Origin: a virus
Strand: one strand, 5' to 3'
IMG/VR virus record: IMGVR_UViG_3300028920_000050
Location: 37,395-101,394 of that record
DNA: 64,000 nucleotides
The notes under the pieces are model-generated. The model did no database searches and was not told the DNA's origin. It saw nothing but the letters and a program-made list of their open reading frames with translations. A program made the translations under genes and the position numbers. This document shows, piece after piece, positions 932 to 63,222 of this stretch (position 1 is its first letter; each line of letters starts with the position of its first letter).

Positions 932-1327
932 TTAGCAAGCCTTTTTGTAAGATCTTACTTTTCTACTTTTTTCGTAGCGGTAAGTATCTTTATCTTTATG
1001 AGTGGAAGAGGACTCAACAATAATACTATCCCTGAACCATGTAACACCTGTAAACCTGTGTACATCTCCGGGCTTTACTCTCATGTAGTCTCCCTTGCGG
1101 AGAACATATATTTTATTATTGAGTTCCATGCGGACCTTGCCGCAAAGAATGATGAATACTTCATCTTTTAATTTATGATAGTGCAGACTGCACTGAAAAC
1201 CTGATTTTAATACAAGTACTTTCGTACAATAGTCACTATTAACTATAAATCCTTCGAGACCCCACACTTTACGTGCGATCTCTATAAAGAAGTTTTCTTT
1301 AAATTGACGTTTAAGATTTTTCCACAT
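932..1327 (-). CDS. Cupin-domain protein (mannose-6-phosphate isomerase-like cupin_2)
   Basis: KVWGxE...SLHYHxxKDExF...G...PGDVHRFTG cupin metal-binding motifs. Confidence 0.85.
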   Translation of the reverse strand: MWKNLKRQFKENFFIEIARKVWGLEGFIVNSDYCTKVLVLKSGFQCSLHYHKLKDEVFIILCGKVRMELNNKIYVLRKGDYMRVKPGDVHRFTGVTWFRDSIIVESSSTHKDKDTYRYEKSRKVRSYKKAC

Positions 1328-1344
1328 AATAATTTCCTCTAAAA

Positions 1345-1403
1345 AGGGGTTTCCGTACCAAACGGTATCTGCTGGTCGGATGCGTGCAAGGCACGGAAAC
1401 CCG
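1345..1403 (-). terminator. Inverted repeat / probable terminator
   Basis: GGGTTTCCGT...ACGGAAACCC stem followed by a U-run on the minus strand, downstream of 1430..1813. Confidence 0.5.
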
Positions 1404-1429
1404 TTTACCTAAAATGTTTTGGAGTTGAA

Positions 1430-1813
1430 TTAGCTTACCGTAACAGTATTCATGTTCCGGTAAATCCGTGTACGCTGTTTGTATTGTTTGTTTCTCTCGT
1501 TGATAAATGCACCAAGCAGTTTGCCAAGTGATTTACGGAGAGCTGTCCACCCTTCTTTTGGCTTAGGGTGGTTAGCAAGATAAAGAAGATCATTCTTTGC
1601 GGCAATAGGCAGTGTGGAGATAGAATAGACAACGGCAGCAAGCTTCTTTGCATGAGCGTCCTTTGCTTCTCCCATATCTTTTCTGGCCTTGGTTATTTCC
1701 TTCACAAGGTTATCCTTCCGTGTTTTAATTATTGACTGGACTTCCTTTTCCGGCTTTTCACCTTCAACTGAAGCAAGCTCCAGTTTAATTAATCTTATCG
1801 CTTCATCACGCAT
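1430..1813 (-). CDS. Hypothetical helical protein
   Basis: 127 aa ORF, AAGGAG SD. Confidence 0.75.
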   Translation of the reverse strand: MRDEAIRLIKLELASVEGEKPEKEVQSIIKTRKDNLVKEITKARKDMGEAKDAHAKKLAAVVYSISTLPIAAKNDLLYLANHPKPKEGWTALRKSLGKLLGAFINERNKQYKQRTRIYRNMNTVTVS

Positions 1814-1869
1814 GATGTACTCCTTAAAGTAAAATAAAGGCAGCCTAGCTACTCAACTGCCGGGGTAGT

Positions 1870-2290
1870 TTTCAATATAGTGGAGCGGGGGGCCGTGCCA
1901 GTATTCCTGACACTGCAGCCTTTGGTGACCGCTTCCCAGGGGGCATTATTTTCGCAACTTAAGAGGACTCACTGGCATAACGTTCCGTCTTAAGACTACC
2001 TTTCCTCTCCCTGCCCTACCAGAGGGCGGGGTTTGCAGGAGGCTCCGCAACTTGCAAGTCTGTATAAAAAAGAGTGTAAGTATAAAGTCATTGGTCAAAA
2101 AATAAATGATGTAAGATCTTACATCAGGCGACTGAACCGTTACAGGCCCCAACGTAAGATCTTACATCTGCGCGGCTAATTATACCCTGTAAAGTCCGCT
2201 ATCGGAACAGGGTGACGGAATTTCAGGATCAAAAGCATCCCGGAGTATCCGTAGATGTTTTCTCCCTAGCCGTGTCCGCTTGCGGAGAGT
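1870..2290 (-). ncRNA. Candidate structured RNA(s), two multi-stem blocks (about 1875-2060 and 2170-2290)
   Basis: GC-rich intergenic DNA with many complementary stems; no family recognised. Confidence 0.35.
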
Positions 2291-2291
2291 A

Positions 2292-2735
2292 TTAAGCTGA
2301 TCTTGCTTCTTCTTTTTCTTTGGTTTCTTCTGCTTTTTCATTGGAAGCCCCCTCAGCTTTTTTAGCTTTATCCTCAAGGCGCTTCTTTTTAGCGGCCTCA
2401 AGCTCAACCTTTTTAGCTTCTTTCCGTTTGATAAGCTCGTCCTCTATGCGCTGAACAGTATCAACACTGTGATACTCTCCCGGTTTCCATAAAGGGTGCT
2501 CAACATTACCGGTAATTCGGAGGTCCGTGGTGAGTTTACCGGCTGTATGGAACTCCTCAGTAAGAACTTTCTCAATGAGATCGAGCTTACCGACATAGAT
2601 ACGCTTGCGGATACCTGTAGTACCGCTGCCCTTGGTAAAGGCAATACGGACGGCAGGTTTACCGTAGTGGCTGACGTTTTGGATGTTGACATGAACACAC
2701 TTGATGTTCATTTCTTCGATAATTTTATCTTTCAT
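2292..2735 (-). CDS. Hypothetical protein, K/E-rich C-terminus
   Basis: 147 aa ORF, AAGGAG SD. Confidence 0.75.
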   Translation of the reverse strand: MKDKIIEEMNIKCVHVNIQNVSHYGKPAVRIAFTKGSGTTGIRKRIYVGKLDLIEKVLTEEFHTAGKLTTDLRITGNVEHPLWKPGEYHSVDTVQRIEDELIKRKEAKKVELEAAKKKRLEDKAKKAEGASNEKAEETKEKEEARSA

Positions 2736-2946
2736 CTTTTTTGTCTCCTTGTTTATTATTATAGTAACACTGTTGGTGGTGGACTATTAATTTGTCTACC
2801 TCATGTTCAGGTAACTTCCGTAGGGTAGTACCTGTATTGGAGTTCTTGTATTTCTTGCACCGTTTTAATGGACAATCTTTTTTAGGGGTGGGGCACTCTG
2901 TAAGGTAGGTCTTTATCATGTGCATAGATACAAGCATATCTATCAT
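2725..2946 (-). CDS. Small Cys-containing hypothetical protein
   Basis: 73 aa ORF, ATGA overlap with upstream gene. Confidence 0.5.
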   Translation of the reverse strand: MIDMLVSMHMIKTYLTECPTPKKDCPLKRCKKYKNSNTGTTLRKLPEHEVDKLIVHHQQCYYNNKQGDKKDER

Positions 2947-3266
2947 CCCCTAACTCCCGCAAAGAAGGAATACACTTTAAACTTAAACTTCCGCCAAGTC
3001 ATTTTCTTTTTCCAGTATGCGATCCTGTCAAGCACCTTTTTTTCAAGATCTTTATAATAGTCGATCTGCTCACAGCTGTCCGGACATGTCTTGCGGTCGG
3101 CGGACCGAAGGCGGAAGCCCTGGCAATTATTGCATATCGTATCACACGCTTCATTAAGAGCGTTGGACATCTTGACATGCAGGTCGTCATACTTTTTAGG
3201 TTTCATAATTACTCCAAAACAAATGTGAGGAGACCTACAATACCTCAGCGTTACAGATCTCCTCAC
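2943..3266 (-). CDS. Cys-rich hypothetical protein (true start probably the MKPKK Met near 3206)
   Basis: CxxxCxxC and CxxxC clusters; GGAG SD before internal Met. Confidence 0.6.
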   Translation of the reverse strand: MRRSVTLRYCRSPHICFGVIMKPKKYDDLHVKMSNALNEACDTICNNCQGFRLRSADRKTCPDSCEQIDYYKDLEKKVLDRIAYWKKKMTWRKFKFKVYSFFAGVRG

Positions 3267-3438
3267 AATAATTAGCTAGATTATTTGCTTGTATAATAAT
3301 TTGTTTTTATATTAGGTATTTTGTGTAGCTACCGCATAACACCCCCTTGCCTACTCTCAGGCGGTCCGGTTGTTTTTTGGTTGGCATACTTGCCGCTAAA
3401 GGTTTAAATATAAGGTTTGTGTTTCCACATGAAATACT

Positions 3439-3466
3439 ATTATACAATAAATGTAACATCTTACAA
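3439..3466 (-). promoter_or_regulatory. Sigma70-like promoter whose -35 lies within a palindrome copy
   Basis: Minus strand TTGTAA-N16-TATAAT; palindrome variant TGTAACATCTTACA at 3452-3465. Confidence 0.55.
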
Positions 3467-3885
3467 GTCCCCTCTATGTAACAGAGAAAAAAGAGCAGTT
3501 GTAATTAAGCAAAAATAAAAGTAAGACCCTACACCCTGAACTGCAGCTGGGAGGCCCCGCGATCCAGAATGTAAGATCTTACAATTTATAATATTTGTGG
3601 CAAGGCGCCACCACCCTTCCCTACTCTTTCTCCAAAATTTTATTTTAATACTTGCAGTAAAAATCTGCGGGGACCGCCAACCTTGTCCAGGCGATCCCCA
3701 CAGATGTTATTTACGTATACCGGATATAAAGGAAATTAAGACCGGACACACATAAACCAGTAAACAGTTATTTGCTAAAGCATAAGAGCTTTAAGCCGTA
3801 AATAAAAAACATAAATGTAAGTTCCCCCATAACAGAAATAAAAGAGATATTAAAACAAATAGTACAGGCCCATATTGATTAGGCC

Positions 3886-3933
3886 AAAAAAATACCCGGA
3901 AAGGATTATTATTTTTAATCCCTTCCGGGTATT
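3886..3933 (-). terminator. Rho-independent terminator
   Basis: AATACCCGGAA.GGATTA / TAATCC.TTCCGGGTATT stem plus U7 on the minus strand, downstream of 3994..4890. Confidence 0.75.
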
Positions 3934-3993
3934 GTAATGTAAGATCTTACAATCGAAATTGTAAGATCTTACATTTAGCAGGAAATGAAATGA

Positions 3994-4890
3994 TTATTTT
4001 TTTAACTTGCGGGTAATGGTGCGCTCATAATTTTCGGTAACCTTTTTGATATAATCAGTACAGGATTTTTCAACCTGTTTCAATTTATCTTTACCGATTT
4101 TGATCTTTAAAATGTCAGATACAATGTCAACAGCATTTTCAGCCAATAACATTTTACAGATCATTTCTTTTTGATCATTAGATTTTTTGTTTTCCTTTTT
4201 GATACTGTCTCGGTCAATTTGTTTTGACATTTCACTGATCATTTTTTCACGTTCTAAAATTGCATTGTGCTGTTTATCAATTTTTTCACGTTCTTTATTA
4301 TCGGTGATTTTTGCCGTATTTGGTAATAGATTTACTTCTTTTTTTGCCTGATCTATTCCGAGCTTGCAAATATACTTTTTATATTTGCTATCATCTTTTA
4401 AATTGCCGTTACCACTTGCAATATAGGTGATCAGCTTTTTGATGCTATCATCATTTAACTGATTTTTCTTGACCGTCTTTGCTAAGTTCATTAGAACCGA
4501 GTACGGTACATTTGTACCAAGTTCAATCTGAAAATTAGCAAAATACCCGGCTGAAATTAATTTCATTACTGCATTTTGTTTGACATGTAAACGGCTGAAA
4601 TATTCTTTCCAGTATTCATCCACGACCGAAGATATTGACGGTTTTTTGGAATAATTGTCAGGATTTTTTTTATAATCTGTTAACTTTTCTGTCAACAGAT
4701 CAGCAGTAAAATTATGTAACATGGCATGGTACACGATTTTACTTGCATTTTCATATTTTGACATGGTAATGATCTTTTTGAATTGATCATTACGATTGTT
4801 AACTACCGTTAACATATTGCCCATGTCAATAGATGATTTAAAGATTTTGTCCGTGTCGGATTTTGATACGATTGTTTGATTTTTATTCAT
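3994..4890 (-). CDS. Hypothetical K-rich protein, probable first early gene
   Basis: 298 aa ORF, visibly more AT-rich than neighbours, with own promoter and terminator. Confidence 0.8.
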   Translation of the reverse strand: MNKNQTIVSKSDTDKIFKSSIDMGNMLTVVNNRNDQFKKIITMSKYENASKIVYHAMLHNFTADLLTEKLTDYKKNPDNYSKKPSISSVVDEYWKEYFSRLHVKQNAVMKLISAGYFANFQIELGTNVPYSVLMNLAKTVKKNQLNDDSIKKLITYIASGNGNLKDDSKYKKYICKLGIDQAKKEVNLLPNTAKITDNKEREKIDKQHNAILEREKMISEMSKQIDRDSIKKENKKSNDQKEMICKMLLAENAVDIVSDILKIKIGKDKLKQVEKSCTDYIKKVTENYERTITRKLKK

Positions 4891-5004
4891 AATATTTTTC
4901 CTTTTATTTTAATTTAGTTAAAATGTAATATCTTACATTCTATATAAAAAATAAAATGTAATATTACATTTTTACAGGATCACAACATGCTGATCCTATT
5001 CTTA

Positions 5005-5032
5005 ATTGTATCATGATTATAGTTTTTGTCAA
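5005..5032 (-). promoter_or_regulatory. Sigma70-type promoter for 3994..4890
   Basis: TTGACA-N16-TACAAT with extended -10 TG; flanked by palindrome copies at 5052-5063, 4957-4968 and 4924-4937. Confidence 0.7.
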
Positions 5033-5247
5033 GTTTAATTTTTATCAATTTTGTAATATTACAAAAATCCGATACAGTAACCCGGAACCGTGATCCCGGT
5101 ACTGGAGATTGAAGGACACCCCCGACGCCGTCAGAGGGTCCGGGTCCCTATGTACTTGAAGCTGAGAACTTTAAAGGATTTAGATTTTAAGTTAGCAATA
5201 CATAAACATATCCAACACACTTTAAAACACACTTTGCAGCACACTCT

Positions 5248-5730
5248 TACTACTACTCTTATATAGGGTAATGTTAGAGGGCTTTCGGGCCTGGCTCCCG
5301 CCGGTTTTTAAAGCTGTATTATAGGAGCAAAAAATAATTCGGATCTTTGGAAATACAATATATAGCGTGCTTTGAACAATACCTGCTGCATAGAACGCAC
5401 GTAATACAGGATCTTTGTACTACTCTTACTATGTGTACTGTTAGTGTACTTGTTGGGCCGTTCTCCCGCCCGTTTTTAGATCTTGACACTTAAACAATAA
5501 TACAATGTAAGACCTTACATAATAGGTATGTATACCTATAAAGTATGTCTAAGTGTCAAGTGTTGATCGCTGTCATGATGTGCTTAGAGATCCCGATTAT
5601 ATGCGTAATACCACTGTGATCATGTTAAATAATAGGGTAGATCTGCTGTGGATCTGAGGGCAATACACTACTACATAGGTCTCTATATAGGGGGCATGTA
5701 GAGGGGTTTACCCGTATTCCCCCGCCCTGG
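5248..5730. repeat. Three imperfect ~60 bp direct repeats plus nested inverted repeats
   Basis: TACTACTCTTA...TGTTAG...GGGCC...CTCCCGCC.GTTTTTA at ~5248-5310 and ~5418-5478, degenerate copy ~5666-5730; CTTGACACTTA (5482-5492) / TAAGTGTCAAG (5550-5560) inverted pair. Confidence 0.6.
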
Positions 5731-5791
5731 CTACACAGAGGCTTTCTATGGGACGTTCTCAGGGAGGGTCTGCATATTGGGCCTACATACA

Positions 5792-5837
5792 GAAAAACCC
5801 TCTGTGCTGAAGCCGTATAAACAGCACAGAGGGTTTC
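5792..5837 (-). terminator. Rho-independent terminator ending the late gene block
   Basis: 15-bp stem AAACCCTCTGTGCTG / CAGCACAGAGGGTTT ending in a U-run on the minus strand. Confidence 0.75.
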
Positions 5838-5873
5838 ATGAGTGTACCCATAATTAGGAGGAACTTAAATAGC

Positions 5874-6275
5874 CTATCTGCCACGCACCTGTCTTAGAAA
5901 TATCTGGTTTCCCTGTGGATTACGTTTACCTATCCTTGGCTTACGCTTACCTGTAGATAAGAAGCTTTCACCAAACCACCCCTCCATTTTTTTGATATAG
6001 GCAGTTCGGCTTTTTATATGAAGCTTCTTTTTATACATGCTTATAGCAAGGTTGGCTTTCTGAGGATCTGTTAAATGCGGATTATAGTAGTACTCGTGTA
6101 TTCCCTTGGTGTGTATACCAATATCCTTTCTCAGAGCTTTTACTTTTCCAAGTAACTTTGCTCTTTGATCCCCGCTTAATTTTGCACGTGCCCATCTGTG
6201 GGCTTTATTTAGAACGTACTTTCTGCCCCGTATAAGCTTAGTCATTCCTACACGGAGCAACTGTTTTTTAGGCAT
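5874..6275 (-). CDS. Basic protein, shared N-terminal motif family
   Basis: LRVGMTKLIRGRKYVLNKAHRWAR. Confidence 0.8.
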   Translation of the reverse strand: MPKKQLLRVGMTKLIRGRKYVLNKAHRWARAKLSGDQRAKLLGKVKALRKDIGIHTKGIHEYYYNPHLTDPQKANLAISMYKKKLHIKSRTAYIKKMEGWFGESFLSTGKRKPRIGKRNPQGNQIFLRQVRGR

Positions 6276-6280
6276 TAATA

Positions 6281-6733
6281 TTATGCTTTTCTTTTACGGA
6301 CAGCTATTCTGTGACCAAGACGATTAATTGCTATAGATCCCACAGTGAGAGTAGCCAATGCTGCAATTCCTTTTCCTGATGTCATCAAACCGGCAGATCT
6401 TCCTGCTATCCTCATACTTCTCTGTGCTTTCCTGTACATGGAAGCGCCTTTTATTAAACTGCCTCTTTTAAGCATCCGTTTGGCTTCACCACTCATACGT
6501 ACTGCACGTTTTAACTCAACATGGTGCATAATACGTGCTCCGCTTTCCACTGCCAAATGTGCTCCGCCAGTAATAGCACCAATAGCTCCAACACCTGCAG
6601 TTATCCCACCTGCAAGCTGTCGGCCCACACCAGCACGTTCCCATCTGGATGTTTTACCTAATTTATAGGTTCTTCCTTTTACTGTTTTGGTCATTCCATG
6701 TTGAAGCTTTCGTCTTTGTTTCATACGAGCCAT
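6281..6733 (-). CDS. Basic protein with glycine-zipper segments, shared N-terminal motif family
   Basis: LQHGMTKTVKGRTYKLGKTSRWER followed by GGITAGVGAIGAITGG. Confidence 0.8.
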   Translation of the reverse strand: MARMKQRRKLQHGMTKTVKGRTYKLGKTSRWERAGVGRQLAGGITAGVGAIGAITGGAHLAVESGARIMHHVELKRAVRMSGEAKRMLKRGSLIKGASMYRKAQRSMRIAGRSAGLMTSGKGIAALATLTVGSIAINRLGHRIAVRKRKA

Positions 6734-6735
6734 AG

Positions 6736-7083
6736 TTAAGCCCTCCTTCTCTTTATTTTCTTTTTTTCTTTGATAACCATTATAAAACTGGCAATAGCAC
6801 CAAGGCTTGTGGCTATCTGCTGTATATAATCAAATATCATTGATACTATTGACTTCTTCTCAGCTGTTGTATTGGTAACACGTGAGTCCCTTCTTGGGCG
6901 CCGAGTTGTCCGATCTGCGGTTGCAGGAGCAGATCTCCTGTATACAAATGTGGAGTTATCAGTTTTAGCTTGTATGGAGAAATTAACAAGTTTCCTTCTT
7001 ATAAATGAAAGTGCAGCAAGAACAATAAATACAATACAGACTGTTGTTAATACTTTTAATTTAATATCTTTTATTTTACGCAC
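6736..7083 (-). CDS. Small two-TM membrane protein
   Basis: Hydrophobic VLTTVCIVFIVLAALSFI and IATSLGAIASFIMVI segments with basic termini. Confidence 0.7.
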   Translation of the reverse strand: MRKIKDIKLKVLTTVCIVFIVLAALSFIRRKLVNFSIQAKTDNSTFVYRRSAPATADRTTRRPRRDSRVTNTTAEKKSIVSMIFDYIQQIATSLGAIASFIMVIKEKKKIKRRRA

Positions 7084-7618
7084 GTATCCTCCTTCTCCTC
7101 GGCCTTCTGTAATTGGAAGCAGTAAGGTGAGTAGCTATTCCACGTTTCCGCAGATTTTCCATTGTACTTGGTTTCGTATCAAAAGATATACGAGATCCAG
7201 GCTTTAAGTCTCTATTCATCTGTGCAGTAATTAGAGTATTTACTACACCGAGCCTTCTTTCAGAAGCAGCTCTCTCCCGCTTTCTTGCTGACATCTTAAC
7301 CAAGAGTCCACTTACAAAAGCACCTGCACTTGTAGCAACTAAAGCCTTGTGTACTTTATAAGGTGCTTTCTTAAGTAACTTTGTTTTCTTACTGAGTGCT
7401 AAATAGCTGGCAGCTAGACCCAAACCAACCATACTCATGCGTTTTCCTAGACGGCCACGACTACTATAATCAAAACCTTCTATGTTCCTCTTACCTGTAC
7501 GTTCCCACCTATAGTTTTTATTCAGTTCATAGGTTATTCCGCTTACTGTTTTCTGTTGACCTATTTTAGCCTTTGCTTCTTTGGCATTTTTTCTGGCTCG
7601 TCTCTTGGTTGTTGGCAT
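7076..7618 (-). CDS. Basic protein with hydrophobic segments, shared N-terminal motif family
   Basis: AKIGQQKTVSGITYELNKNYRWER; two Gly/Ala-rich hydrophobic stretches. Confidence 0.8.
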   Translation of the reverse strand: MPTTKRRARKNAKEAKAKIGQQKTVSGITYELNKNYRWERTGKRNIEGFDYSSRGRLGKRMSMVGLGLAASYLALSKKTKLLKKAPYKVHKALVATSAGAFVSGLLVKMSARKRERAASERRLGVVNTLITAQMNRDLKPGSRISFDTKPSTMENLRKRGIATHLTASNYRRPRRRRIRA

Positions 7619-7636
7619 GCACTCCTCCTTAAATTA

Positions 7637-7680
7637 AATGAAAGAGATAAATGTAAGAACTTACATTTATCTCTTTCATT
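7637..7680. terminator. Long inverted repeat with palindrome variant at its core
   Basis: AATGAAAGAGATAAATGTAAG-AA-CTTACATTTATCTCTTTCATT. Confidence 0.65.
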
Positions 7681-7703
7681 GTTCTGTCATTGTCGCAGTG
7701 ACG

Positions 7704-7892
7704 TTATGACATCTTGACAGGGCCGATACCGTTGTGTGCCTTCGGTGCAGGATACTTTCCTTTGTATTTGTCAATCTTATCTTTTGCACCGGGAGCCTTA
7801 GACGGACCAATCCCATTACGGGCAAGCCCTGGCCGGCCAACCTGGTGTTTCGCACCTTTGTTCTTCGTGTTTTTTGGAAATGTTGCTGCCAT
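7704..7892 (-). CDS. Small basic protein with duplicated NGIGP motif (62 aa)
   Basis: AGGAGG SD before MAATFPK; ARNGIGPSK and AHNGIGPVK repeats. Confidence 0.7.
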   Translation of the reverse strand: MAATFPKNTKNKGAKHQVGRPGLARNGIGPSKAPGAKDKIDKYKGKYPAPKAHNGIGPVKMS

Positions 7893-7920
7893 AGTTTTCC
7901 TCCTGTTTAATATATTAAAC

Positions 7921-8379
7921 CTATAGTAGTCCGAGTTCTTTTTGAACTCGTTTACGTACACGACCTAGAGCTTCCCTTGTACGTTTAGCCTCAGGTGTAT
8001 TGACTGTACCATGTCGTTTGTGTGCCTCGTACACACTACTTAATTTCATATATCTTTTTCTTACTCCCGGATTTACTCGTCTAATCCCCTGCCTGAAAGA
8101 TGACTTGGCCCTTACAGTAACTTTACGAGTAGACAATATAGCAAGTGTAATAAAACCAGCAGTAATAGCTGCACCCTTGGCATACGCTTTAAGCCTCATT
8201 CTTCTTCTGTATTTTTCATAACTTATGGTTGGACCGGAAAAATATGCAGACTCTTTTAGCGGAACCTTTATATAATCTCTTTCCCATCTTGAAGTACGAC
8301 CAAGTTTATACCTCTTTCCTCTAACTGTTTTTGTAGCCCCTGGTCTTATACGTTTTTGATCATACTTCTTTCTTGCCAT
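7921..8379 (-). CDS. Basic protein with TM-like segment, shared N-terminal motif family
   Basis: IRPGATKTVRGKRYKLGRTSRWERDY; GAAITAGFITLAIL. Confidence 0.8.
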   Translation of the reverse strand: MARKKYDQKRIRPGATKTVRGKRYKLGRTSRWERDYIKVPLKESAYFSGPTISYEKYRRRMRLKAYAKGAAITAGFITLAILSTRKVTVRAKSSFRQGIRRVNPGVRKRYMKLSSVYEAHKRHGTVNTPEAKRTREALGRVRKRVQKELGLL

Positions 8380-8398
8380 AATGAAATCCAGATATTAA

Positions 8399-8833
8399 TT
8401 ATTTATTTCTTTTTCTTCGTTTATATGTAGAGTGTGCGATCTTTGTAGTAACAGCTGTACCTAATGCTACAGCCACACCTTTCTTACCGTGTTTAGCAAT
8501 AGCTTTGCTTAGGGGCTTACTGGCTTTTCGTATAGCTGCTCCTGCTCTGCTTATTGTTTTACTTGCTTTACCTGCCTTATGAGAACTACTCTCTACTCTT
8601 TTACCGAAGCGTTTAACCTCTTCGCCAGCTTTCTTCCCCGCAGTTTTAAAACCGCGGTCTACTGCTTTGTTTAGACCTTTAGCCTTACCGACTGCTCCTG
8701 TCTTTTGTACCTTGACCCACCGCACAACTCCTTTGCGGATCTCTGTCAAACGGAGCATAGCACCAGCTGCTCCTTTCTTCATAGCACCGATTTTCTGGCC
8801 GGCAGCTTTCTTTATTCTTTTCATTCTTGCCAT
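8399..8833 (-). CDS. Very basic K/A/G-rich protein, possible divergent family member
   Basis: KIGAMKKGAAGAMLRL...VRWVK; C-terminal GVAVALGTAVT. Confidence 0.75.
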   Translation of the reverse strand: MARMKRIKKAAGQKIGAMKKGAAGAMLRLTEIRKGVVRWVKVQKTGAVGKAKGLNKAVDRGFKTAGKKAGEEVKRFGKRVESSSHKAGKASKTISRAGAAIRKASKPLSKAIAKHGKKGVAVALGTAVTTKIAHSTYKRRKRNK

Positions 8834-8855
8834 TTGTTATCTCCTGTTTTTTATA

Positions 8856-9764: not shown

Positions 9765-9879
9765 ACAGACTCCTTGCTAATGTAAGATCTTACATTCAGT
9801 TAATAAAATGGGGTTCTTCGTGCAGGACAGCGTTATATAATACGGATCGTCTTACTATTATTATAATGTAAAATCTCAA

Positions 9880-55301: not shown

Positions 55302-55338
55302 ACTTTACTCCTCGAAGTTATTTTGATATTAGAAATTT

Positions 55339-56253
55339 TTAACCAGTCATCTCCGTCGAGCTTTTTGCTGCTTCAGTGAGTAATTCCTTTCTTTTCTGCT
55401 TATAGTCTTTCATGTCGGTCGGGACTTGAATGTTGCCATTCCCCGCCGCACTCGAATTGTCGATGTTTTGTCCAGCATTTTGCGGTACACTAATTTTTTG
55501 ATCGGAAGGGGATGCTCCCTGATCTGCACCAGTAGCTTTTCTAATATTAGCAATAACATCCTGCAACTGCTCAGGCTTAACTCCCAGTGTTTGTGCAAAA
55601 GCACTGGTCTGTTGAGCCTTAACAGCTTGTGCTGTCTTGAATGATTCATTTAATTCATCTATAGTATTACCTTGGACAAGCTCAGGAATGATATCGTCAC
55701 GTACTTTCCCGTCAGGTGTTTTGATAATAGTATTCCTGTACGATGAGAGATCATTCTTATTAAGCCGTTCTGTTATAGAACCAATAGCCTGTGTAACTTG
55801 TGTTATCTGGTTGTTGAACATTTCATTCTGCTTGCGAAGTGTCTCCGCAAGTTGCTCATCAGGCTTAAGTGAATTGAAGTTTTCCTGGTCCTTTTTTTTC
55901 TGAGCTTCCTGTGCTGCTTTCTCAGCATCAGCTTTCGCTTGAGTGAGAGTCTGAACCTGCTTTGTCAAGTTTTCGATCTCACCGTAATGCTGTGACTTAA
56001 AAGTTTCAGCAGCAGTCTTTGTTGCGTTCTCGGTAATATTTTTAGTAAGATCAGGGAGTAAGCCACTTACTGACTCCGCCACGATCTTAGTTATGTCCTC
56101 AGTTGTTGGTGCTTTTGGCTTATTGTCTCCGCCATCTGCTGGTTTCTGATTTTTTTGCCATGCTTCTAACGCTTTGTTTACAACTCCGGTAATAGCTTCA
56201 GCTGTTAATCCTACGTTATTAGTGTTTCCACTGTCATCATTAGTCTCTGCCAT
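55339..56253 (-). CDS. Capsid scaffolding protein
   Basis: Coiled-coil Q/E/K-rich protein directly upstream of MCP; IIPELVQGNTIDEL. Confidence 0.8.
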   Translation of the reverse strand: MAETNDDSGNTNNVGLTAEAITGVVNKALEAWQKNQKPADGGDNKPKAPTTEDITKIVAESVSGLLPDLTKNITENATKTAAETFKSQHYGEIENLTKQVQTLTQAKADAEKAAQEAQKKKDQENFNSLKPDEQLAETLRKQNEMFNNQITQVTQAIGSITERLNKNDLSSYRNTIIKTPDGKVRDDIIPELVQGNTIDELNESFKTAQAVKAQQTSAFAQTLGVKPEQLQDVIANIRKATGADQGASPSDQKISVPQNAGQNIDNSSAAGNGNIQVPTDMKDYKQKRKELLTEAAKSSTEMTG

Positions 56254-56281
56254 AGATCCTCTCCTTTGTTAGTATACTACT

Positions 56282-56311
56282 ATTATAACACAAAATAATA
56301 GTTTTTTGCAA
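56282..56311 (-). promoter_or_regulatory. Sigma70-type promoter for scaffold/MCP
   Basis: TTGCAA-N18-TATAAT with extended -10 (TGtTATAAT). Confidence 0.6.
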
Positions 56312-56324
56312 GTAAAAACTTAAT

Positions 56325-58865
56325 TTAATACCCAAAATGCCTTAAAATGCCCTCATGTAGGCTACCAAGGATCTCATTTTTAGTCTTTTTTACCAGAAAA
56401 TCAAATGTCTCTGAAAACACTTCTTTAAAATAAGTATGATCTTTTACAAAGGTTCCCATTATAACTCTCATCTGCTCGCCTGTACTTTTAGCAGAATAAA
56501 ATCTTGTAGCTATTTTTTTAAGCTTAGGTGTCGGACGTAACTGCATTGTATCCTTAAGTTTTGTCTTGAATAACTTAACAGTCTCCTGTTTACCGGCAAG
56601 TTTAAGGTGATTACCTATACGTGCCACTCTTTGAATATTATCACCAACAGCATCAGCAATCTGATCAGAAAGTAAACCATAAACATCCTGCGGCTTAAAT
56701 CCTGGCTGAGCCAGCCAATACTCAATATTCTTTGTATAGATAATTATGTCTCCGGGTCCAGACAATATTGTCTGTGGCTTTCCTTTTACAAATACACGAT
56801 ACCTATATGTATGTCTACGCAGTTTAACCATCTGCTTAGACACTCTTCTCCGCCCTGCCGGTCCTGTACGTAGTACTGTCCTGCTATTCATCCACCCATC
56901 AATAGTATCTCCTGCTGGTGTTTTATTAGCACTGTCTGAAAGTACTGATGTAAAATCATTTACCATGTGCCTTGAAGCAAGTCCATGCTCATCAATTATT
57001 CCTCCGCTTTTTGATTTCTCAAGTATATATCTGTAAGCAATAAGCTTTCGCTTCCTGTCAAGTGTTATAGCATCCTTTACACCTAACAAACTCTCAATCT
57101 TAATAAGCTTATCTTTTATTGTAAGCTCAAGCTTCTCTGAAAGAGATTTAGACTCTATAAGCCTTCCCCTCTTATCTCGCTTGTCAAAAACATAATCACC
57201 GTACACAGCTACAAGTGTATGCCTGATCTTTTTTCTAAGCTCTCTTCGTTCCAGTTCTTCTGGTGTATATTCTGGAGGTCTAGTAGGTTCTACATCAGGT
57301 GCGCGTGGCACGTATGGTTTTTGTATTTCAATATTATTCTCTTCAATAATATCCCGCAAATCAATAGAGGATATAACACACCATCCGTTCTTGTGATCGC
57401 GGGGAGTATGCATCGGTAAATATATGTTTTTAAATAACTCAGCAGGTACTCCTGCTTCTATAATATCTTTAATGATCTGCTCTATTGTAAAAAATACTGG
57501 AAGCCTAAGCTCTCCTCCTCTCGGATTATTAAATGATTTTAATGTCCTATTCCTCCCTGGCTTTTCTTTATTATAAACTGCTGCTTCAGCTTCATATACA
57601 GAAGAGGGTATAGCTCCCGGATCATACATATCCTCTGTCGGTGTATCTTCATTGTATGATAAGAAAGGATGCCCTTCCTCACTTACAAAAAACTGACCAG
57701 AGTAAACATCACATATATCAAATGGCCTATTCTTGCTCTCAAGCCACTCAAAGTGAGCATCGTAACTCATATCATATTTCATTAAAAGAAAGGGGGAGTC
57801 TGTATTATGAAACCAGTTTCTGAACATGTTACTATTTATACCACCGCTACCCATCATGTCTATGAAGTTATTAAAAGTGGTATCACTCATAGGTTTACCT
57901 GTAGCGTAATTCTCTGGAACAACTACATCCTTAACACTGTGTATTGCTTCATCAGAGAAGTACTTGAAGTCCTCTGCATAAGCACGTTCTGTTACCTTAG
58001 ATATACTATCTCTTAATTCAGGATCAGTTCTGTCTAATATTAAATCAAGAACACTATTAAAAGCTTTTATAGTTCCCTTTCTTATTAAACCAGTAATACC
58101 ACTTGCAATAAACTGATTAAACCTAAGGAGCCTTCTCTGCCCCTCAGTGAGTTCAAGCTCCCGCCCGCCCTCAGTAAGTGTTCTTGTTGAATATCCTTCA
58201 TGCCCATTTATTATTTTATCTATACGATCTTTAATATCAGAATAACTCTCATCATTAACATAGTCTCCTACCTCAAGACCCCGCATAGCACTTTGTATAA
58301 AATCGTCACTTAATCCTGCGTCTCTCATTTCTTTATAGTACTCATTCTTTACATCACTTACATACTTACCTGTAATAAGAGACCATAACTGCTTTCTTGT
58401 TTTATTATTTAAAGGAAGATTTCTCGGCCTGTACTTTCTCTCATCAAGTTCATGATAGCTTGGTGCTGAAGTTGTTAATGCTAATTTTTGTCCAGCCATC
58501 CCCTTAGTTATAACAGGAACTCGTGGTATAGGTCTCTTAAGCTCCTGTCCAGATCCACTTCTGGATACTGTTTGCATCATGCTATTACCAAAGCCAATCT
58601 GCATAGTATCTTCAAAGTACTGCTGTTCTTTTTTAGTAGCCAATTCACCTGTGCGTGGCTTTACTCCCTCTGCACGAGCGAGTACCCACCTTTTAAACCT
58701 AGTTCTTTCTTGCGGTGAAGTTGAGTAACCTTGAGCGGCCAGATCTGCAAACTCTTCTACTAGATCTTTCCGTCTGTTTTTTAGATATTTTTTGACTTTA
58801 TTATTTACTGATCTTGATGTATTAAATACATCAATAAACTTGCTCAGATACTGATCTTGGCTCAT
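56325..58865 (-). CDS. Extended minor head protein (MuF-like position)
   Basis: 846 aa between portal and scaffold; DICDVY...G and PMHTP...NGWC reminiscent of MuF C-terminal motif. Confidence 0.55.
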   Translation of the reverse strand: MSQDQYLSKFIDVFNTSRSVNNKVKKYLKNRRKDLVEEFADLAAQGYSTSPQERTRFKRWVLARAEGVKPRTGELATKKEQQYFEDTMQIGFGNSMMQTVSRSGSGQELKRPIPRVPVITKGMAGQKLALTTSAPSYHELDERKYRPRNLPLNNKTRKQLWSLITGKYVSDVKNEYYKEMRDAGLSDDFIQSAMRGLEVGDYVNDESYSDIKDRIDKIINGHEGYSTRTLTEGGRELELTEGQRRLLRFNQFIASGITGLIRKGTIKAFNSVLDLILDRTDPELRDSISKVTERAYAEDFKYFSDEAIHSVKDVVVPENYATGKPMSDTTFNNFIDMMGSGGINSNMFRNWFHNTDSPFLLMKYDMSYDAHFEWLESKNRPFDICDVYSGQFFVSEEGHPFLSYNEDTPTEDMYDPGAIPSSVYEAEAAVYNKEKPGRNRTLKSFNNPRGGELRLPVFFTIEQIIKDIIEAGVPAELFKNIYLPMHTPRDHKNGWCVISSIDLRDIIEENNIEIQKPYVPRAPDVEPTRPPEYTPEELERRELRKKIRHTLVAVYGDYVFDKRDKRGRLIESKSLSEKLELTIKDKLIKIESLLGVKDAITLDRKRKLIAYRYILEKSKSGGIIDEHGLASRHMVNDFTSVLSDSANKTPAGDTIDGWMNSRTVLRTGPAGRRRVSKQMVKLRRHTYRYRVFVKGKPQTILSGPGDIIIYTKNIEYWLAQPGFKPQDVYGLLSDQIADAVGDNIQRVARIGNHLKLAGKQETVKLFKTKLKDTMQLRPTPKLKKIATRFYSAKSTGEQMRVIMGTFVKDHTYFKEVFSETFDFLVKKTKNEILGSLHEGILRHFGY

Positions 58866-58868
58866 TCA

Positions 58869-60740
58869 TTATTCTTCGTTAGCACCTAGTTTGGCATCTG
58901 CCTGTTTATCTACACCACCATCTTGTGATTGATTTGTAACCTGTGTAGCAGGAGTAGAACCTCCTCCACTAGAACCAGGAGGTACATTGTCAAACCCACC
59001 ATCCATAGGAGGCTCAAGTATAGCGTTCTTCTTAGAGTCATGCATAGCTTTACGAAGTTCATCACGTTCTATTTGAGCAAGATATCCATCAGGATCTGAT
59101 ACCTCAAGTTTCTTAAGAGCGTCACGATCAGTTATAAGAGACAAGTCTTTACGATCACGTATATTACCTATCTCTGTGTACTCATCTTTCGGAAGAGAAT
59201 AAGCAATACCAATATCCATGTCCTCAACCCAACGAGCATAGATACCTTCCTTCATAAACTTAAAGTAATCGAACACACCTGTTTCATTCTTTGTCTGAAC
59301 AATGTCCACCTTAAGTACAAGTGCAGCCATAAGCTTTGAGAACTTATCTACAGGAAATGCTTCAGGATCTTTTCGTGCCTTATCAAGGGCTTCCTTTAAA
59401 TCTTTAACTCCCAGGTCAGCTCCTATGTTATCTATGGTCTTGTCAACATGAATAAAAAGACCATTATACAGAAAGCCATAGCATATAATTATACGATTAA
59501 GTTTTTTAAATCCTTCTATATAATTATCCTTGCACATATCTGTGGCCCGAATAAGAGAATAATATTCTGTGTGAAGGGCGGAACCTGATGTATTTGAAAT
59601 GGCACTTTCAGTCCCACCAAGGGATCTTGCATGCACACCAGTAGCTTCATGCAGTGCCTGTTTTATTAATTCAAGAAACTTTGTAGCTGCCGGCAGATCA
59701 GTATCGAGAGTAACATGCTTCAGATCTGCACCTTTAGGAATAGCATAAGTTTTGTCTGGACCCACCACCATTGACTTAAGAGAAGCTCCTGTCAAAACTG
59801 TCATTGGTGAAGCGAAGTACCTTACAATACCACGTATATCGCGAACAATATCGTTGTAAATAAAATTAAGATTATATGATTTCTGAACGTCAGACTCTCC
59901 GAAGTCGCTGTTCTTTACCTCAGAGTTGACAATATGAGCAATAGGTATATAACCAAGATAGTTCGGAGCGGGGTATCCCATTACAAGTTTATCATCCTTG
60001 TAAACAGCTACTGTGGTTTTTGTCCACACTTCCCGCAACGTGAACGAATTACCATCATCAGTAACACCGTCCATGAATACTTCACACTTAACCATCTCCT
60101 TCCTTGGAGTGTAAGCATAGGTTGGGAATACACGCTTCTCATCAAGAACGAGTATCTCCATTTTAAGATTGGCAGGATCGAAACTATCAGTTAAAACATA
60201 AGCCCCTTCATCAACAACCTTGTCCTGGCTCTCATCGAGAACAAGATGAAGCTTCTCTATCTCTGATGTTTCCTGTGAGATAGCCGCTGTATCATCAGCA
60301 ACTCCTTCACTTTCAAACTTATTATCCTTGGTAACTTCTCTGCCTACAGTATCCACATAAGGGATCACTTTTATAAAGGCATCACCAGCTACCTTACCTG
60401 TACGGACGATCTCCTTAGCCTTCTTGTCACGGCCATTGAGTTCCCATACTTTGTTTACAAAATCTTGGAGGGTTTGGTTGTAAGGAATATAGGGCTTGAT
60501 GCCCTTGCCAACCATGAAGTGAACCAGAGCGTCAATGAACACTCTGTTATAATTGATGTCAGCCGTTATAAGTCTGCCGTCATTTTTGTCCTGCAAATTA
60601 TCGGCCTTCGTTCTATAGGCTATCCAGAACTTACGGTAGTTATTAACTCGCTCAGTGTGCTGCTTCTCAACATCAAGGTCTGTAACCTTAAACTGTAGAG
60701 CATACCTTTTATAGAACTCATTAGCTGTGTTAACTGCCAT
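58869..60740 (-). CDS. Portal protein (SPP1 gp6-like)
   Basis: INYNRVFID..VHFMVGKG, GDAFIKV, N.LGYIPIAHI.N...FGESD, SNTSGSAL. Confidence 0.92.
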   Translation of the reverse strand: MAVNTANEFYKRYALQFKVTDLDVEKQHTERVNNYRKFWIAYRTKADNLQDKNDGRLITADINYNRVFIDALVHFMVGKGIKPYIPYNQTLQDFVNKVWELNGRDKKAKEIVRTGKVAGDAFIKVIPYVDTVGREVTKDNKFESEGVADDTAAISQETSEIEKLHLVLDESQDKVVDEGAYVLTDSFDPANLKMEILVLDEKRVFPTYAYTPRKEMVKCEVFMDGVTDDGNSFTLREVWTKTTVAVYKDDKLVMGYPAPNYLGYIPIAHIVNSEVKNSDFGESDVQKSYNLNFIYNDIVRDIRGIVRYFASPMTVLTGASLKSMVVGPDKTYAIPKGADLKHVTLDTDLPAATKFLELIKQALHEATGVHARSLGGTESAISNTSGSALHTEYYSLIRATDMCKDNYIEGFKKLNRIIICYGFLYNGLFIHVDKTIDNIGADLGVKDLKEALDKARKDPEAFPVDKFSKLMAALVLKVDIVQTKNETGVFDYFKFMKEGIYARWVEDMDIGIAYSLPKDEYTEIGNIRDRKDLSLITDRDALKKLEVSDPDGYLAQIERDELRKAMHDSKKNAILEPPMDGGFDNVPPGSSGGGSTPATQVTNQSQDGGVDKQADAKLGANEE

Positions 60741-61191
60741 TCCCTCCTCCCTTTTTTCCGCCTAAAAGGGTCTCAAGGATGGTTTGTCCTGGCCCAGGGG
60801 TATCACCCCCTTCTCTTTTAATAGTAACAACTTCTTTATTTGTAGACAAGTCCTTGATCACCTTAGCCAGTTTAAATATATTCTCTGCCTGTTGTGTGAC
60901 ATTTTTATCATGAGATCCACCAGATAGTTCTTCAAAGGTAGTGCCCCGCATGTACCTTTCCATTTCTTTCTGCATAATAGCAAGTAAAGCAGGGGCTAGG
61001 TCTTTTACCTTCTCAATGGCGGGACCATTAGCTAATTGACACTTTTGCCCTGACTTCTTAAGTGAACACTGCTCATTATAATCACAGTTATCACATACAA
61101 GTGCATTGTCAATATAAACAGCAACTTTATTGCTGCCATTATCAACAACTACTTGCTTGCCGGCATTTTCTTTCTTCTTGCCTTTAGCCAT
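60730..61191 (-). CDS. Cys-cluster protein upstream of portal (possible small terminase-like)
   Basis: CDNC..C..C plus helical EELSGG.D region; function inferred only from position. Confidence 0.45.
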   Translation of the reverse strand: MAKGKKKENAGKQVVVDNGSNKVAVYIDNALVCDNCDYNEQCSLKKSGQKCQLANGPAIEKVKDLAPALLAIMQKEMERYMRGTTFEELSGGSHDKNVTQQAENIFKLAKVIKDLSTNKEVVTIKREGGDTPGPGQTILETLLGGKKGGGNGS

Positions 61192-61208
61192 AATGTAAGA
61201 TATTACAT

Positions 61209-61517
61209 TTAGACTTTCGATAAAGTAAAAACCGTAACGCTTACTTCCTTCTGCTGGATCTGCTTTGTCTTGTAACCAAGATCGATTCCTACACGATAGT
61301 TGTCTGCGAAAATTAATCTTTTTACTTCAATGATTGTCTTGACTGCTTGTGACACTGGCAAAACACCGATTGCATGGAGTTCTACCTTCTTTACATCCTG
61401 GGTATAAAGATGACGTATCCCGGAGGCCGCCTTCTTATGAGAAGTACCCTTGGCTATAAAATAAACAGCTACACCATCAACTATTTTTACGTCTTGCTTT
61501 TGCTTCGTTTCTTCCAC
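61209..61517 (-). CDS. spoVS: SpoVS-family protein (Alba-like fold)
   Basis: AxGI......VELHAIGxxPVSQAVKTI matches SpoVS EIQAIGAGALNQAVKAV pattern. Confidence 0.8.
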   Translation of the reverse strand: MEETKQKQDVKIVDGVAVYFIAKGTSHKKAASGIRHLYTQDVKKVELHAIGVLPVSQAVKTIIEVKRLIFADNYRVGIDLGYKTKQIQQKEVSVTVFTLSKV

Positions 61518-62086
61518 TCGTTATCCTCTTTTTTAATTAATGCCTCAATCACTTCACGCTGATACGTAAAGTGCTTACTTTTTACATTGTTTCTTATATT
61601 ATAATACAATAAGGCTATATTTGCAAGGATAAAAGCATCTGCTTCATCGTCATTATTGATGTCTAAACAGTATTTTTTATAGATCTCCCGGATTATTATG
61701 GTTTTCGCCTCTTTTCCCTTGGCTTTTTTCATGAGTTGAGGACCAAGTATAAACTTCTTGAGCTGGATCGGAACAGGCTCTATAATAACAGAAGGAGTAA
61801 ACGAATATATCTTAAATCGTATATGACTACCAATTTCCACAAGCTGAGCAAGCTTACCCTTAGATGCAAAAGAATAAGCCTCAATAGCCGTACACATAAT
61901 AATATTTTTACCAAGAGCAGCTAATACTTCTTTGCCTACATTCTTTATACGTAGCATCCTTCCACTAACATCATTACCTATATTCTCTGACGTTATATGT
62001 GTTATAATACAAACTTTCCCCTTCTCGTTAATGACACAGACACCTGTACTAGTAAGAGATATATCAAGTCCTAAAAAGTATTTCAT
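61487..62086 (-). CDS. ruvC: RuvC-like Holliday junction resolvase
   Basis: GLDISLTSTG, IEAYSF, LKKF..G, NDDEADAFILA catalytic acidic residues. Confidence 0.9.
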   Translation of the reverse strand: MKYFLGLDISLTSTGVCVINEKGKVCIITHITSENIGNDVSGRMLRIKNVGKEVLAALGKNIIMCTAIEAYSFASKGKLAQLVEIGSHIRFKIYSFTPSVIIEPVPIQLKKFILGPQLMKKAKGKEAKTIIIREIYKKYCLDINNDDEADAFILANIALLYYNIRNNVKSKHFTYQREVIEALIKKEDNEWKKRSKSKT

Positions 62087-62110
62087 CAGTTACTCCACTT
62101 ATTTCTATCT

Positions 62111-62245
62111 TCATTTCTTCCTCCTTTTTCTGCGTATTAAAATAATAACTACAGCCCAAAAACCCCCACCTATAATAGTAAGGCCCAAACTATAAATTAT
62201 AAAAAAAGATATTACACTAAGAGAATATTCTCCATCTGGTATCAT
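62111..62245 (-). CDS. Small TM protein (44 aa), absent from ORF track
   Basis: Manual translation MIPDGEYSLSVISFFIIYSLGLTIIGGGFWAVVIILIRRKRRKK; ATGA overlap. Confidence 0.55.
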   Translation of the reverse strand: MIPDGEYSLSVISFFIIYSLGLTIIGGGFWAVVIILIRRKRRKK

Positions 62246-62535
62246 ATTTTTTTCCTAACTTTACCTCTAAAATAAAACCCGCAAGCAATCAAAAGAACAT
62301 TCTTAAAAATATCCCTGAAACCTTCCGGGTGTATTACAGTTAAAAGACACAGAGTAAATATCATCATGATCCATGTAATATCTACTATAGTCTCTGTATC
62401 AAAAACTTCCCTTACTATTAAAGTAATTATCTTATGAAAAAACTTACCCGTCCTCTCTGTTAATCTTCTTCGTCTGTTCCGGGGTCGCTTTGACAATAAG
62501 TTTCTCTTTCGCTTTACCTTTGAGGTCTGTTTCAA
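62242..62535 (-). CDS. Small membrane protein (start uncertain)
   Basis: Two hydrophobic segments in C-terminal half. Confidence 0.45.
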   Translation of the reverse strand: MKQTSKVKRKRNLLSKRPRNRRRRLTERTGKFFHKIITLIVREVFDTETIVDITWIMMIFTLCLLTVIHPEGFRDIFKNVLLIACGFYFRGKVRKKI

Positions 62536-62863
62536 TTATAACTACCTCCCCACTTATTCTCACAACCTTCATTATCTTTCCGGTTTTATCCGTATAAAAA
62601 GGTGTGGTGACAGGTCGCCCGAAAAGACCACAATCATTCAAGGCAGCGATCTCAAGCCACCCCTCTTTGGCATTTGCCTTTATGACATTACGAGCAAACC
62701 TTGCATTAAAAAAAGGAAGCCCAATGGGGTCATCAGGCTTCCTGTCCATAAAACTACACAGCTCTAACTGTTTGTAGTTCTCACGATTAACGTACAGTTC
62801 TACAAGTTCACTTGCTTTGTATTCCTGCATATTGTTACTATTGGCTTTGTTAGCTTGATCCAT
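62444..62863 (-). CDS. Hypothetical protein
   Basis: 139 aa, AAGGA SD. Confidence 0.7.
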   Translation of the reverse strand: MDQANKANSNNMQEYKASELVELYVNRENYKQLELCSFMDRKPDDPIGLPFFNARFARNVIKANAKEGWLEIAALNDCGLFGRPVTTPFYTDKTGKIMKVVRISGEVVIIETDLKGKAKEKLIVKATPEQTKKINREDG

Positions 62864-62877
62864 AAAATTATCCTTTA

Positions 62878-63012
62878 TTATAGTTTATATTTAAGTAGTC
62901 CCCACACGACCATCAGTATAAGCAAAACAGTAATGACTACAACTGAGCCAAAAACTATCTTACCTAACGGAGTGAACATGTGGTCGAACCATTTACGTAT
63001 CCTTCTTAACAT
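62878..63012 (-). CDS. Small TM protein (44 aa), absent from ORF track
   Basis: Manual translation MLRRIRKWFDHMFTPLGKIVFGSVVVITVLLILMVVWGLLKYKL; GGAGG SD. Confidence 0.6.
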   Translation of the reverse strand: MLRRIRKWFDHMFTPLGKIVFGSVVVITVLLILMVVWGLLKYKL

Positions 63013-63027
63013 TATTCCCTCCCGGTT

Positions 63028-63204
63028 TTATTTTTCTACTAAGAAATACTTTCCGTCTTTATGCATGTGAGTACAATTACAATAACACCCCATTTTAAGA
63101 TAAAATATAATAGAGTCTAGGTTCCCATCAGAAAACGGATAACCATTTTCCTTCATGTGCTGTGCCACACACTCCTTTAGTGTCTTACCTTTATATACTT
63201 TCAT
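63028..63204 (-). CDS. Small protein (58 aa, MKVYKGKTLKEC...), absent from ORF track
   Basis: Manual translation; ATG directly follows a palindrome copy. Confidence 0.55.
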   Translation of the reverse strand: MKVYKGKTLKECVAQHMKENGYPFSDGNLDSIIFYLKMGCYCNCTHMHKDGKYFLVEK

Positions 63205-63222
63205 AATGTAAGATCTTACAAT

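Follow-up and report, generated by a model that had tools for sequence, protein, structure and literature searches.

What reads a short palindrome that recurs between the genes of a large marine phage? The initial annotation of a 64,000-nucleotide (nt) stretch of viral DNA, bases 37,395-101,394 of IMG/VR record IMGVR_UViG_3300028920_000050 and referred to here in its full length as the window, had described about 20 copies of TGTAA-N4-TTACA and attributed them to one dimeric DNA-binding protein. Positions in the window are prefixed with w, and those on the whole contig (G000:C1, L005) with C1. The contig originates from a marine sediment metagenome, and two DNA runs contain the same phage with almost no variation; it comprises 101,394 bp without end repeats, is estimated to be 82% complete, has a GC content of 39% and carries essentially all of its genes on the minus strand. 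The window contains a myovirus structural module (portal, capsid-region genes, sheath, tube, tape measure, baseplate, fibres and large terminase), its low-coordinate end is an early region rich in intergenic DNA, and replication genes (DnaB-type helicase, RecA, family A polymerase, DnaG-type primase, SSB and a Dam-family methyltransferase) lie in the 37 kb to its left. The palindrome proved to be real and was found 37 times on the contig, and its copies are probably docking sites in double-stranded DNA for a dimeric protein that binds co-operatively at promoters.

The frequency of the element clearly exceeded the background. TGTAA-N4-TTACA (TGTAANNNNTTACA) yielded 17 exact matches in the window compared to 0.18 ± 0.46 in 100 dinucleotide shuffles (>90-fold enrichment); allowing one mismatch gave 20, among which the match at w47363 looks like chance. 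Searching for the 12-mer core GTAAGATCTTAC with at most one mismatch resulted in 19 copies in the window and 37 in the whole contig compared to ~0.2 expected, the network extending with 18 further copies across the 37 kb left of the window. The arms are invariant within the selection used. The single mismatches were exclusively located in the central 4 nt, which read GATC in 22 copies, TATC in 8, GATA in 4, and GATG, GGTC and GTTC in one copy each. A consensus logo of the 37 copies, aAA(T/a)GTAAGATCTTACATT, demonstrated that the symmetry reaches 18 bp, corresponding to the palindrome AATGTAAGATCTTACATT, with no information farther up- or downstream. The near-invariant arms, the variable centre and the symmetric flanks that had been read from the window were thus confirmed for the whole contig. 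Only the N4 spacing between GTAA and TTAC was enriched (40 copies compared to ~3 for every other spacing), the exception being two shortened copies with a 2-nt centre, TGTAATATTACA, at w4957-4968 and w5051-5062 beside one promoter. Scanning for over-represented palindromes revealed no second family and none with different but complementary arms. Elsewhere, the exact 16-mer was detected as 32 singletons in 185,579 species' genomes, with no taxon enriched, and as five singletons in IMG/VR; in three of these five records, which were checked, no additional copies were present.

With respect to genes, 28 to 32 of the 37 copies are located at junctions. At most nine (approximately five on inspection) fall deep inside crude open reading frame (ORF) calls, compared to 87% of genome positions (P ~1e-17), which confirms the intergenic enrichment over the full contig. 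Gaps between genes of at least 14 nt carry a site in 25 out of 60 cases, whereas none of the 68 shorter gaps does. In ~24 of the 37 copies the upstream gene ends with a stop codon positioned between -7 and +1 relative to the core, and in ~7 the TAA of the motif itself is the stop; the start codon of the next gene follows 3-36 nt after most junction copies, usually with an AAGGAG ribosome-binding site. In the late module nine junction copies divide recognisable blocks, for example, tape measure from baseplate and baseplate from fibres, and mark the junction before the terminase. The copy at w16934-16947 follows a stop codon and precedes the ribosome-binding site of the large terminase gene, the one at w26282-26295 is located at another such stop/ribosome-binding-site junction, w36215-36228 at the junction of the baseplate and fibre blocks, and w42755-42768 right after the stop of the tape-measure gene, 6 nt ahead of AAGGAG. 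Behind a SpoVS-like gene the copy at w61194-61207 is followed by an ATG 2 nt past the 14-mer with no ribosome-binding site, and the same arrangement was found for w63207-63220. The initial statement that all copies but one are intergenic requires a correction: the copy at w946-959 (AGTAAGATCTTACA on the gene strand) is intragenic as described, within the last 9 codons of a cupin gene (w932-1327), but w29134-29147 is a second intragenic copy in the window, inside a 1012-amino-acid (aa) tail-fibre-like ORF.

The location between stop codon and next start is also what might be expected of an element acting in the transcript, namely, a short hairpin followed by U's that serves as a partial terminator, as a processing or stability signal, or as target of an RNA-binding translational regulator. 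A T at +13 and +14 in 27 of the 37 copies and the polarity of the element relative to the gene strand agree with such a function, as do two copies at the tips of 20-bp stems, one at w7652-7665 on a perfect hairpin before a 180-aa gene (-24 kcal/mol as RNA) and one at w54345-54358 on a GC-rich hairpin after the capsid-region genes (-33.5 kcal/mol). RNase E has a degenerate sequence preference, with which the AC/AUU after the stem is compatible. As RNA, however, the element itself forms only a 5-bp stem with a 4-nt loop. Long stems are restricted to w7652 and w54345; the other 35 copies form A-U-rich stems of 5-9 bp and do not show the GC-rich stem followed by a U tract of an intrinsic terminator. 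The folding energy of the 52-nt context was mostly between -3 and -10 kcal/mol. Since the stem extends beyond the core by only 0-1 bp in 22 of the 37 copies, the loop is conserved to the same degree as the stem and not a single compensatory arm change was observed among the 37 copies, selection appears to act on the sequence rather than on the structure. Furthermore, two copies are at odds with a role in RNA: the variant at w5051 lies upstream of the nearest promoter-like sequence and w3570 just upstream of the start predicted for its own promoter-like sequence, so that both would be transcribed whole only by read-through. Taken together with the helical phasing of neighbouring copies described below, which would be meaningless for RNA, these findings make an RNA-level element unlikely.

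The relation to promoters was most evident in the early region. Promoters are assigned throughout as consensus matches, the one at w2153/w2110 having been read by eye. A minus-strand gene encoding a 298-aa helical orphan protein (w3994-4890) possesses its own strong promoter, the host-type sequence TTGACA-16-TACAAT with TG (w5005-5032, minus strand), and its own intrinsic terminator consisting of an 18-bp stem and a T run (w3891-3933, minus strand), and is bracketed by five copies. Two of these are arranged in tandem, past the stop codon of the gene and 5 nt ahead of the terminator; the first (w3960-3973) and the second (w3938-3951) have centres 22 bp apart and together constitute a larger palindrome with 18-nt arms. 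On the promoter side, the copy at w4924-4937 is located in the 5' leader at ~+61 and the shortened variant w4957-4968 at ~+30, 32 bp from it, whereas the second variant (w5051-5062) lies 18 nt upstream of the -35 hexamer and 95 bp from the first. The copies at w2153-2166 and w2110-2123, with centres 43 bp apart, are found ~8 nt past and at ~+51 of the predicted start of the promoter-like TTCCGA-17-TATAAT, respectively. Other copies coincide with hexamers: w3452-3465 (centre GATG on the gene strand) covers the -35 of the promoter-like sequence w3466-3439, w3570-3583 provides with its TAAGAT the -10 of TTGCCA-16-TAAGAT (w3603-3576), and CTTACA of the w54345 copy is the -35 of the promoter-like sequence w54350-54321. 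At C1:24740 the site falls on +1 of TTGACA-17-TAGGAT (C1:24780-24752), and w9781-9794 lies in a 5' leader just before the ribosome-binding site, its centre at ~+65 of TTGAAA-17-TATAAT (w9888-9860). The copy at w5506-5519 (centre GGTC on the gene strand) is located within a 900-bp non-coding stretch. The eleven sites originally counted in the first 5.6 kb are thus present, although two of them are the shorter variant. The distances between neighbouring copies of 22, 43, 32 and 95 bp correspond to 2.1, 4.1, 3.05 and 9.05 helical turns, respectively.

This overlap raises the question whether the palindrome is itself a promoter. Its TAAGAT might act as a -10-like element of a phage-specific promoter lacking a -35, used by the host polymerase together with a phage factor and starting at or just after the A at +12, which is kept in 35 of the 37 copies. 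TAAGAT indeed represents the -10 of two sigma-70-like promoters with a good -35, at w3603-3576 and at C1:16417-16389, where it is paired with a perfect TTGACA and only a half-site of the palindrome is present; late-region sites head functional gene blocks, and three genes devoid of a ribosome-binding site begin 3-4 nt past the core, as would be expected for leaderless messages. However, the best -35 matches upstream of the motif TAAGAT followed the genome background, with only w3571 scoring 5/6, and the TG abuts the hexamer instead of standing at extended -10 spacing. The perfect dyad symmetry would be left unexplained, sigma region 4 (Sigma70_r4) was not detected in the 82%-complete contig, and the tandem pair w3938/3960 lies 5 nt ahead of a strong terminator. 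The late genes are already served by canonical promoters, with host-type sequences at w56311-56282 (TTGCAA-18-TATAAT with TG) and w36115-36087 (TTGAAA-17-TATAAT), so that the sites are not needed for this purpose. We consequently give little credence to a promoter function. Using the right arm, CTTACA, as a general -35 was likewise rejected, as a -10 at the proper distance is present only for w54345. The promoter-like sequence w56282-56311 is positioned directly upstream of a capsid-region gene (w55339-56253), and no palindrome copy is found within 1.9 kb of it.

The invariance of arms and centre, the lack of compensatory variants, the weak hairpins, the helical phasing and the overlap with promoter hexamers argue for a dimeric protein binding double-stranded DNA, in agreement with the single dimeric binder originally proposed. 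What the analysis established are the sites with their statistics and their placement with respect to genes and promoter-like sequences; binding by a protein, its dimeric state and its effect on transcription are inferred. One sequence-specific dimeric protein, encoded by the phage or possibly by the host, would dock on the 18-bp palindrome in duplex DNA. Phased clusters located on or directly after host-type promoters of the early control region (w2100-5600) would function as operators, whereas the single sites between stop codon and next ribosome-binding site, at ~25 junctions of the replication and structural modules, would be roadblocks or boundaries for elongating RNA polymerase. By this means one protein might gate transcription genome-wide, resembling stoperators or the dispersed C1 operators of P1 but acting through a symmetric site. 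We prefer such a phage-wide network of operators and roadblocks or boundaries because it accounts for the clusters at promoters as well as for the single copies at junctions, though only tentatively, its probability being somewhat short of even.

Several observations weigh against this network. Two copies, w7652 and w54345, are the tips of 20-bp hairpins. The starts of the three genes without a ribosome-binding site (w61189-61191, w63202-63204 and C1:14472-14474), each an ATG 3-4 nt past the core, fit a promoter better; they could represent leaderless or re-initiation starts. A polarity unexpected for a purely symmetric site is evident from an A preceding the core (-1, gene strand) in ten copies, all within the replication/early part (C1:3801-38341), compared to none with the mirror variant. 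The phasing is based on only five spacings, one of which, the 118 bp between w3452 and w3570, is out of phase, and the promoters concerned are consensus matches only. If every operon of a lytic phage carried a roadblock, a mechanism of release would be required, and none was seen. Pfam and PHROG scans of nearly all ORFs of the 82%-complete contig identified no binder and detected no integrase, S24 repressor or partition gene, which leaves a role in lysogenic silencing without support.

The initial annotation had left the choice between an operator/roadblock network and a genome-organising system; the placement of the sites favours the former only tentatively. In a replication-linked or genome-organising lattice, the docking sites would serve to coat, condense, segregate or prime the chromosome, as known for KorB/OB, Noc/NBS and ParB/parS, and the intergenic bias would mainly reflect that coding sequence does not easily accommodate an 18-bp palindrome. 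Within the two modules the spacing of the sites was indeed more even than that of random positions (coefficient of variation (CV) 0.55 and 0.50; P 0.0045 and 0.03), and two intragenic copies, C1:7030 and C1:28541, are each situated close to the midpoint of a long interval free of sites. Compared to a null restricted to junctions, however, the evenness was weak (P 0.11 and 0.025). The density of sites differs threefold between the modules, eleven sites are clustered on early promoters, and a six-frame search of the contig for ParB_N (PF02195) returned no candidate at E up to 10.

A dispersed palindrome in another group of phages also bears on the lattice. The SIO-2-like vibriophages VA-RY-4, SIO-2, LV6, VH2_2019 and Vibrio phage 1 carry a perfect 12-bp palindrome, GCAATTAATTGC, in 14-33 copies per ~80-kb genome (CV 0.38-0.60). 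Like the element described here, it is dispersed and enriched between genes, and the phages encode a homologue (31% identity) of a MerR-like protein of the present phage, in both groups within the replication genes. Approximately half of the vibriophage copies are located inside genes and their spacing is very even, which would fit a lattice. In contrast to the sites found here, which prefer junctions far more strongly, many vibriophage copies precede a conserved TTGACAAAAC...ATAAT promoter by 8-10 nt rather than standing before a ribosome-binding site; some follow terminators or form the tips of terminator stems. The literature searched contained GCAATTAATTGC only in one unrelated paper. Considering the evidence on both sides, a genome-organising lattice appears rather unlikely for the present phage.

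Near-identical copies at module boundaries might alternatively be recent duplicates, either recombination joints marking module exchange or a self-spreading mini-palindrome, with no regulatory role. Recombination between dispersed repeats is documented for the Cluster O mycobacteriophages (PMC4351075), and HNH/NUMOD4 homing-type endonuclease signatures were observed in the replication module of the phage. Nevertheless, the element comprises only 18 bp with no associated transposase, the flanks of the copies are unrelated, and 37 copies varying only in the centre would require purifying selection on every position. We regard this explanation as very unlikely.

If one protein reads the sites, which gene of the phage might encode it? 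The Pfam and PHROG scans detected a single helix-turn-helix protein, a MerR_1-like 154-aa ORF (G000:C1:15482-15943). Its match to MerR_1 (E 2.6e-4) is under the curated cut-off; the ORF has a second match, to the PHROG family 'excisionase and transcriptional regulator', and in the ESM Atlas the protein was placed with viral 'HTH merR-type' clusters (TM 0.59-0.62). The gene lies in the replication module with a palindrome copy after its stop codon. Two homologues with 67-68% identity (P0006 and P0007) are encoded on contigs of 3.8 and 5.2 kb, and the weaker ones (31% identity) were confined to the SIO-2-like vibriophages. A sequence search of the PDB with the MerR-like protein gave no match, and its structure model (pLDDT 50) was not good enough to search for similar folds. 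The MerR-like family and a lattice of dyads with a 12-bp core or length are thus common to two unrelated groups of marine phages, and Bacillus phage BCD7 has neither, a coincidence that is only suggestive of a link between protein and lattice. Covariation between recognition helix and palindrome across the vibriophages was uninformative, as the helix varies while the palindrome is constant. The 298-aa orphan is an alternative candidate for the reader, or for its first target; no match was obtained for it in Pfam, PHROG, PDB or homologue searches, and its AlphaFold model had a pLDDT of 38. A reader protein, if found, would demonstrate how a single protein co-ordinates the whole genome of a large phage, and would provide a compact orthogonal operator/repressor pair.

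Binding might in addition respond to methylation of the central GATC, as suggested originally, and this idea gained in plausibility. The contig encodes a Dam-family N6-adenine methyltransferase (L005:7283-7810 on G000:C1; PF05869, E 2e-27), and GATC is not avoided but 1.4-fold over-represented in the genome, whereas CTAG, CGCG and GCGC are depleted. Two methylation classes would result, one of the 22 copies centred on GATC and one of the remaining 15.

By nucleotide sequence the phage stands apart, as 10 kb searched with megablast had no match among 50,697 phage records; searches for related loci in viral and metagenome collections likewise yielded nothing of use. BCD7 is the nearest cultured relative, with 24-28% identity in sheath and terminase, and a search with the sheath protein yielded one homologue at 55% (P0002, on a 34.5-kb contig). 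BCD7 can be dismissed as a carrier of the same system, since it contains no such palindrome. It possesses a different repeat, ~29 directional copies of TTGAC(t/c)..TTACCAACTA..TATAAT on the gene strand and mostly in early regions, which represents a sigma-A promoter family with a conserved spacer. A parS-like 14-bp palindrome, GTTTCACGTGAAAC, occurs once in the present phage (C1:15945-15958), filling the gap between a 129-aa ORF and the MerR-like ORF; in BCD7 it is found twice, together with one one-mismatch variant, in the early region between tandem copies of the repeated promoter. The 102-aa SpoVS-like protein encoded next to the w61194 copy (w61209-61517, head module) matched PF04232 with an E value of 1.9e-5, just above the curated cut-off, and the annotation of BCD7 also includes a small 'sporulation protein'.

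Scans for tRNAs and Rfam families gave no matches. Between the late-operon terminator (w5790-5835) and the 298-aa gene, ~900 bp (w4940-5870) are free of ORFs and contain GC-rich segments and direct repeats of 26-40 nt (w5245-5284 with w5412-5451; w5260-5285 with w5684-5709); this stretch could harbour small RNAs or a replication origin. A perfect 17-nt inverted repeat, TTGCCGCAAAGAATGAT, is present at w1137-1153 and w1589-1605, 435 nt apart, in two adjacent small genes, one of them the cupin gene.

How does the element compare to known systems? The CcpA cre and the operators of the LacI family require a central CG step. None of the 37 copies, with centres such as GATC, TATC and GATA, has one, and the likeness to cre drawn in the initial annotation fails on this defining feature. 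The parS/Noc analogy, drawn there as well, was not borne out either, as no ParB-type gene was found in the contig. In a broader sense, KorB/OB of plasmid RK2, parS and the Noc-binding sites (NBS) are similar in that short palindromes read by dimers are dispersed over the replicon with moderately even spacing, some at promoters and some far from them; the differences are that ParB_N was not detected here and that the sequence of the palindrome is unrelated to parS.

A closer match in sequence is offered by quorum sensing. In a lux box, positions 3-5 and 16-18 are required to read CTG/CAG, and the centre has to lie near -42.5 relative to the promoter it controls. The phage sites share with it the TGT-N8-ACA frame of the 20-bp dyad and, in common with lux and tra boxes, the GATC centre. 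They differ from it in their flanks, which read ATG/CAT, and in their position, the start codons being 9-42 nt from the centre at most junction copies and the sites not lying 42 bp upstream of starts. A LuxR-type (GerE, PF00196) domain was not found in a six-frame search of the contig. A literature search with the phage 12-mer matched the fully palindromic synthetic lux box of Aliivibrio logei, ACCTGTAAGATCTTACAGGT (PMC13398223), to which the central 14 bp are identical, the outer CC/GG being replaced by A/T here. In principle, a LuxR-type acyl-homoserine-lactone receptor of the host might read the sites, with cell density gating phage transcription and Dam methylation of GATC as a second input, but we consider this most improbable.

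Stoperators of the Cluster A mycobacteriophages (L5 gp71 type) are ~30 asymmetric sites, active in one orientation, that are read by a monomer in temperate phages with a known repressor gene (PMC9283540). They share with the present sites the location in short intergenic gaps across the whole genome and the presence of copies at an early promoter, and a block to elongating polymerase was proposed (PMC9283540). The site described here is instead a perfect 18-bp palindrome with only a minor asymmetry (-1/+12), and the Pfam and PHROG scans revealed no repressor or lysogeny gene in the 82%-complete contig.

By analogy, the closest published phenomenon is the 17-bp dyad repeat of the Cluster O mycobacteriophages, TGTTCGGNNNCCGAACA, present in 34 copies in Corndog and interpreted by its authors as binding site for a dimeric protein (PMC4351075). 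Both phages contain more than 30 dispersed copies per genome with invariant arms and a variable centre, enriched in short gaps, for which a dimeric binder has been proposed; host genomes carry no Cluster O repeats, and the 16-mer of the present element was seen only as singletons in the species' genomes searched. On the other hand, sequence and host are unrelated, the centre comprises here 4 nt and is itself mostly palindromic (GATC), ~5-9 of 37 copies lie inside genes compared to 11 of 34 clearly in coding regions of Corndog, and only the present phage clusters copies on early promoters. The element is therefore a real and clean further example of a kind of phage-wide signal already known, with a putative function. 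With the Cluster O repeats published and those of the SIO-2-like vibriophages observed here, dispersed junction palindromes occur in unrelated large phages, and the present one is an unusually clean case, combining 37 copies of a perfect 18-bp dyad, operator-like placement in the early region, singletons at gene junctions and a methylatable centre together with a Dam-type gene.

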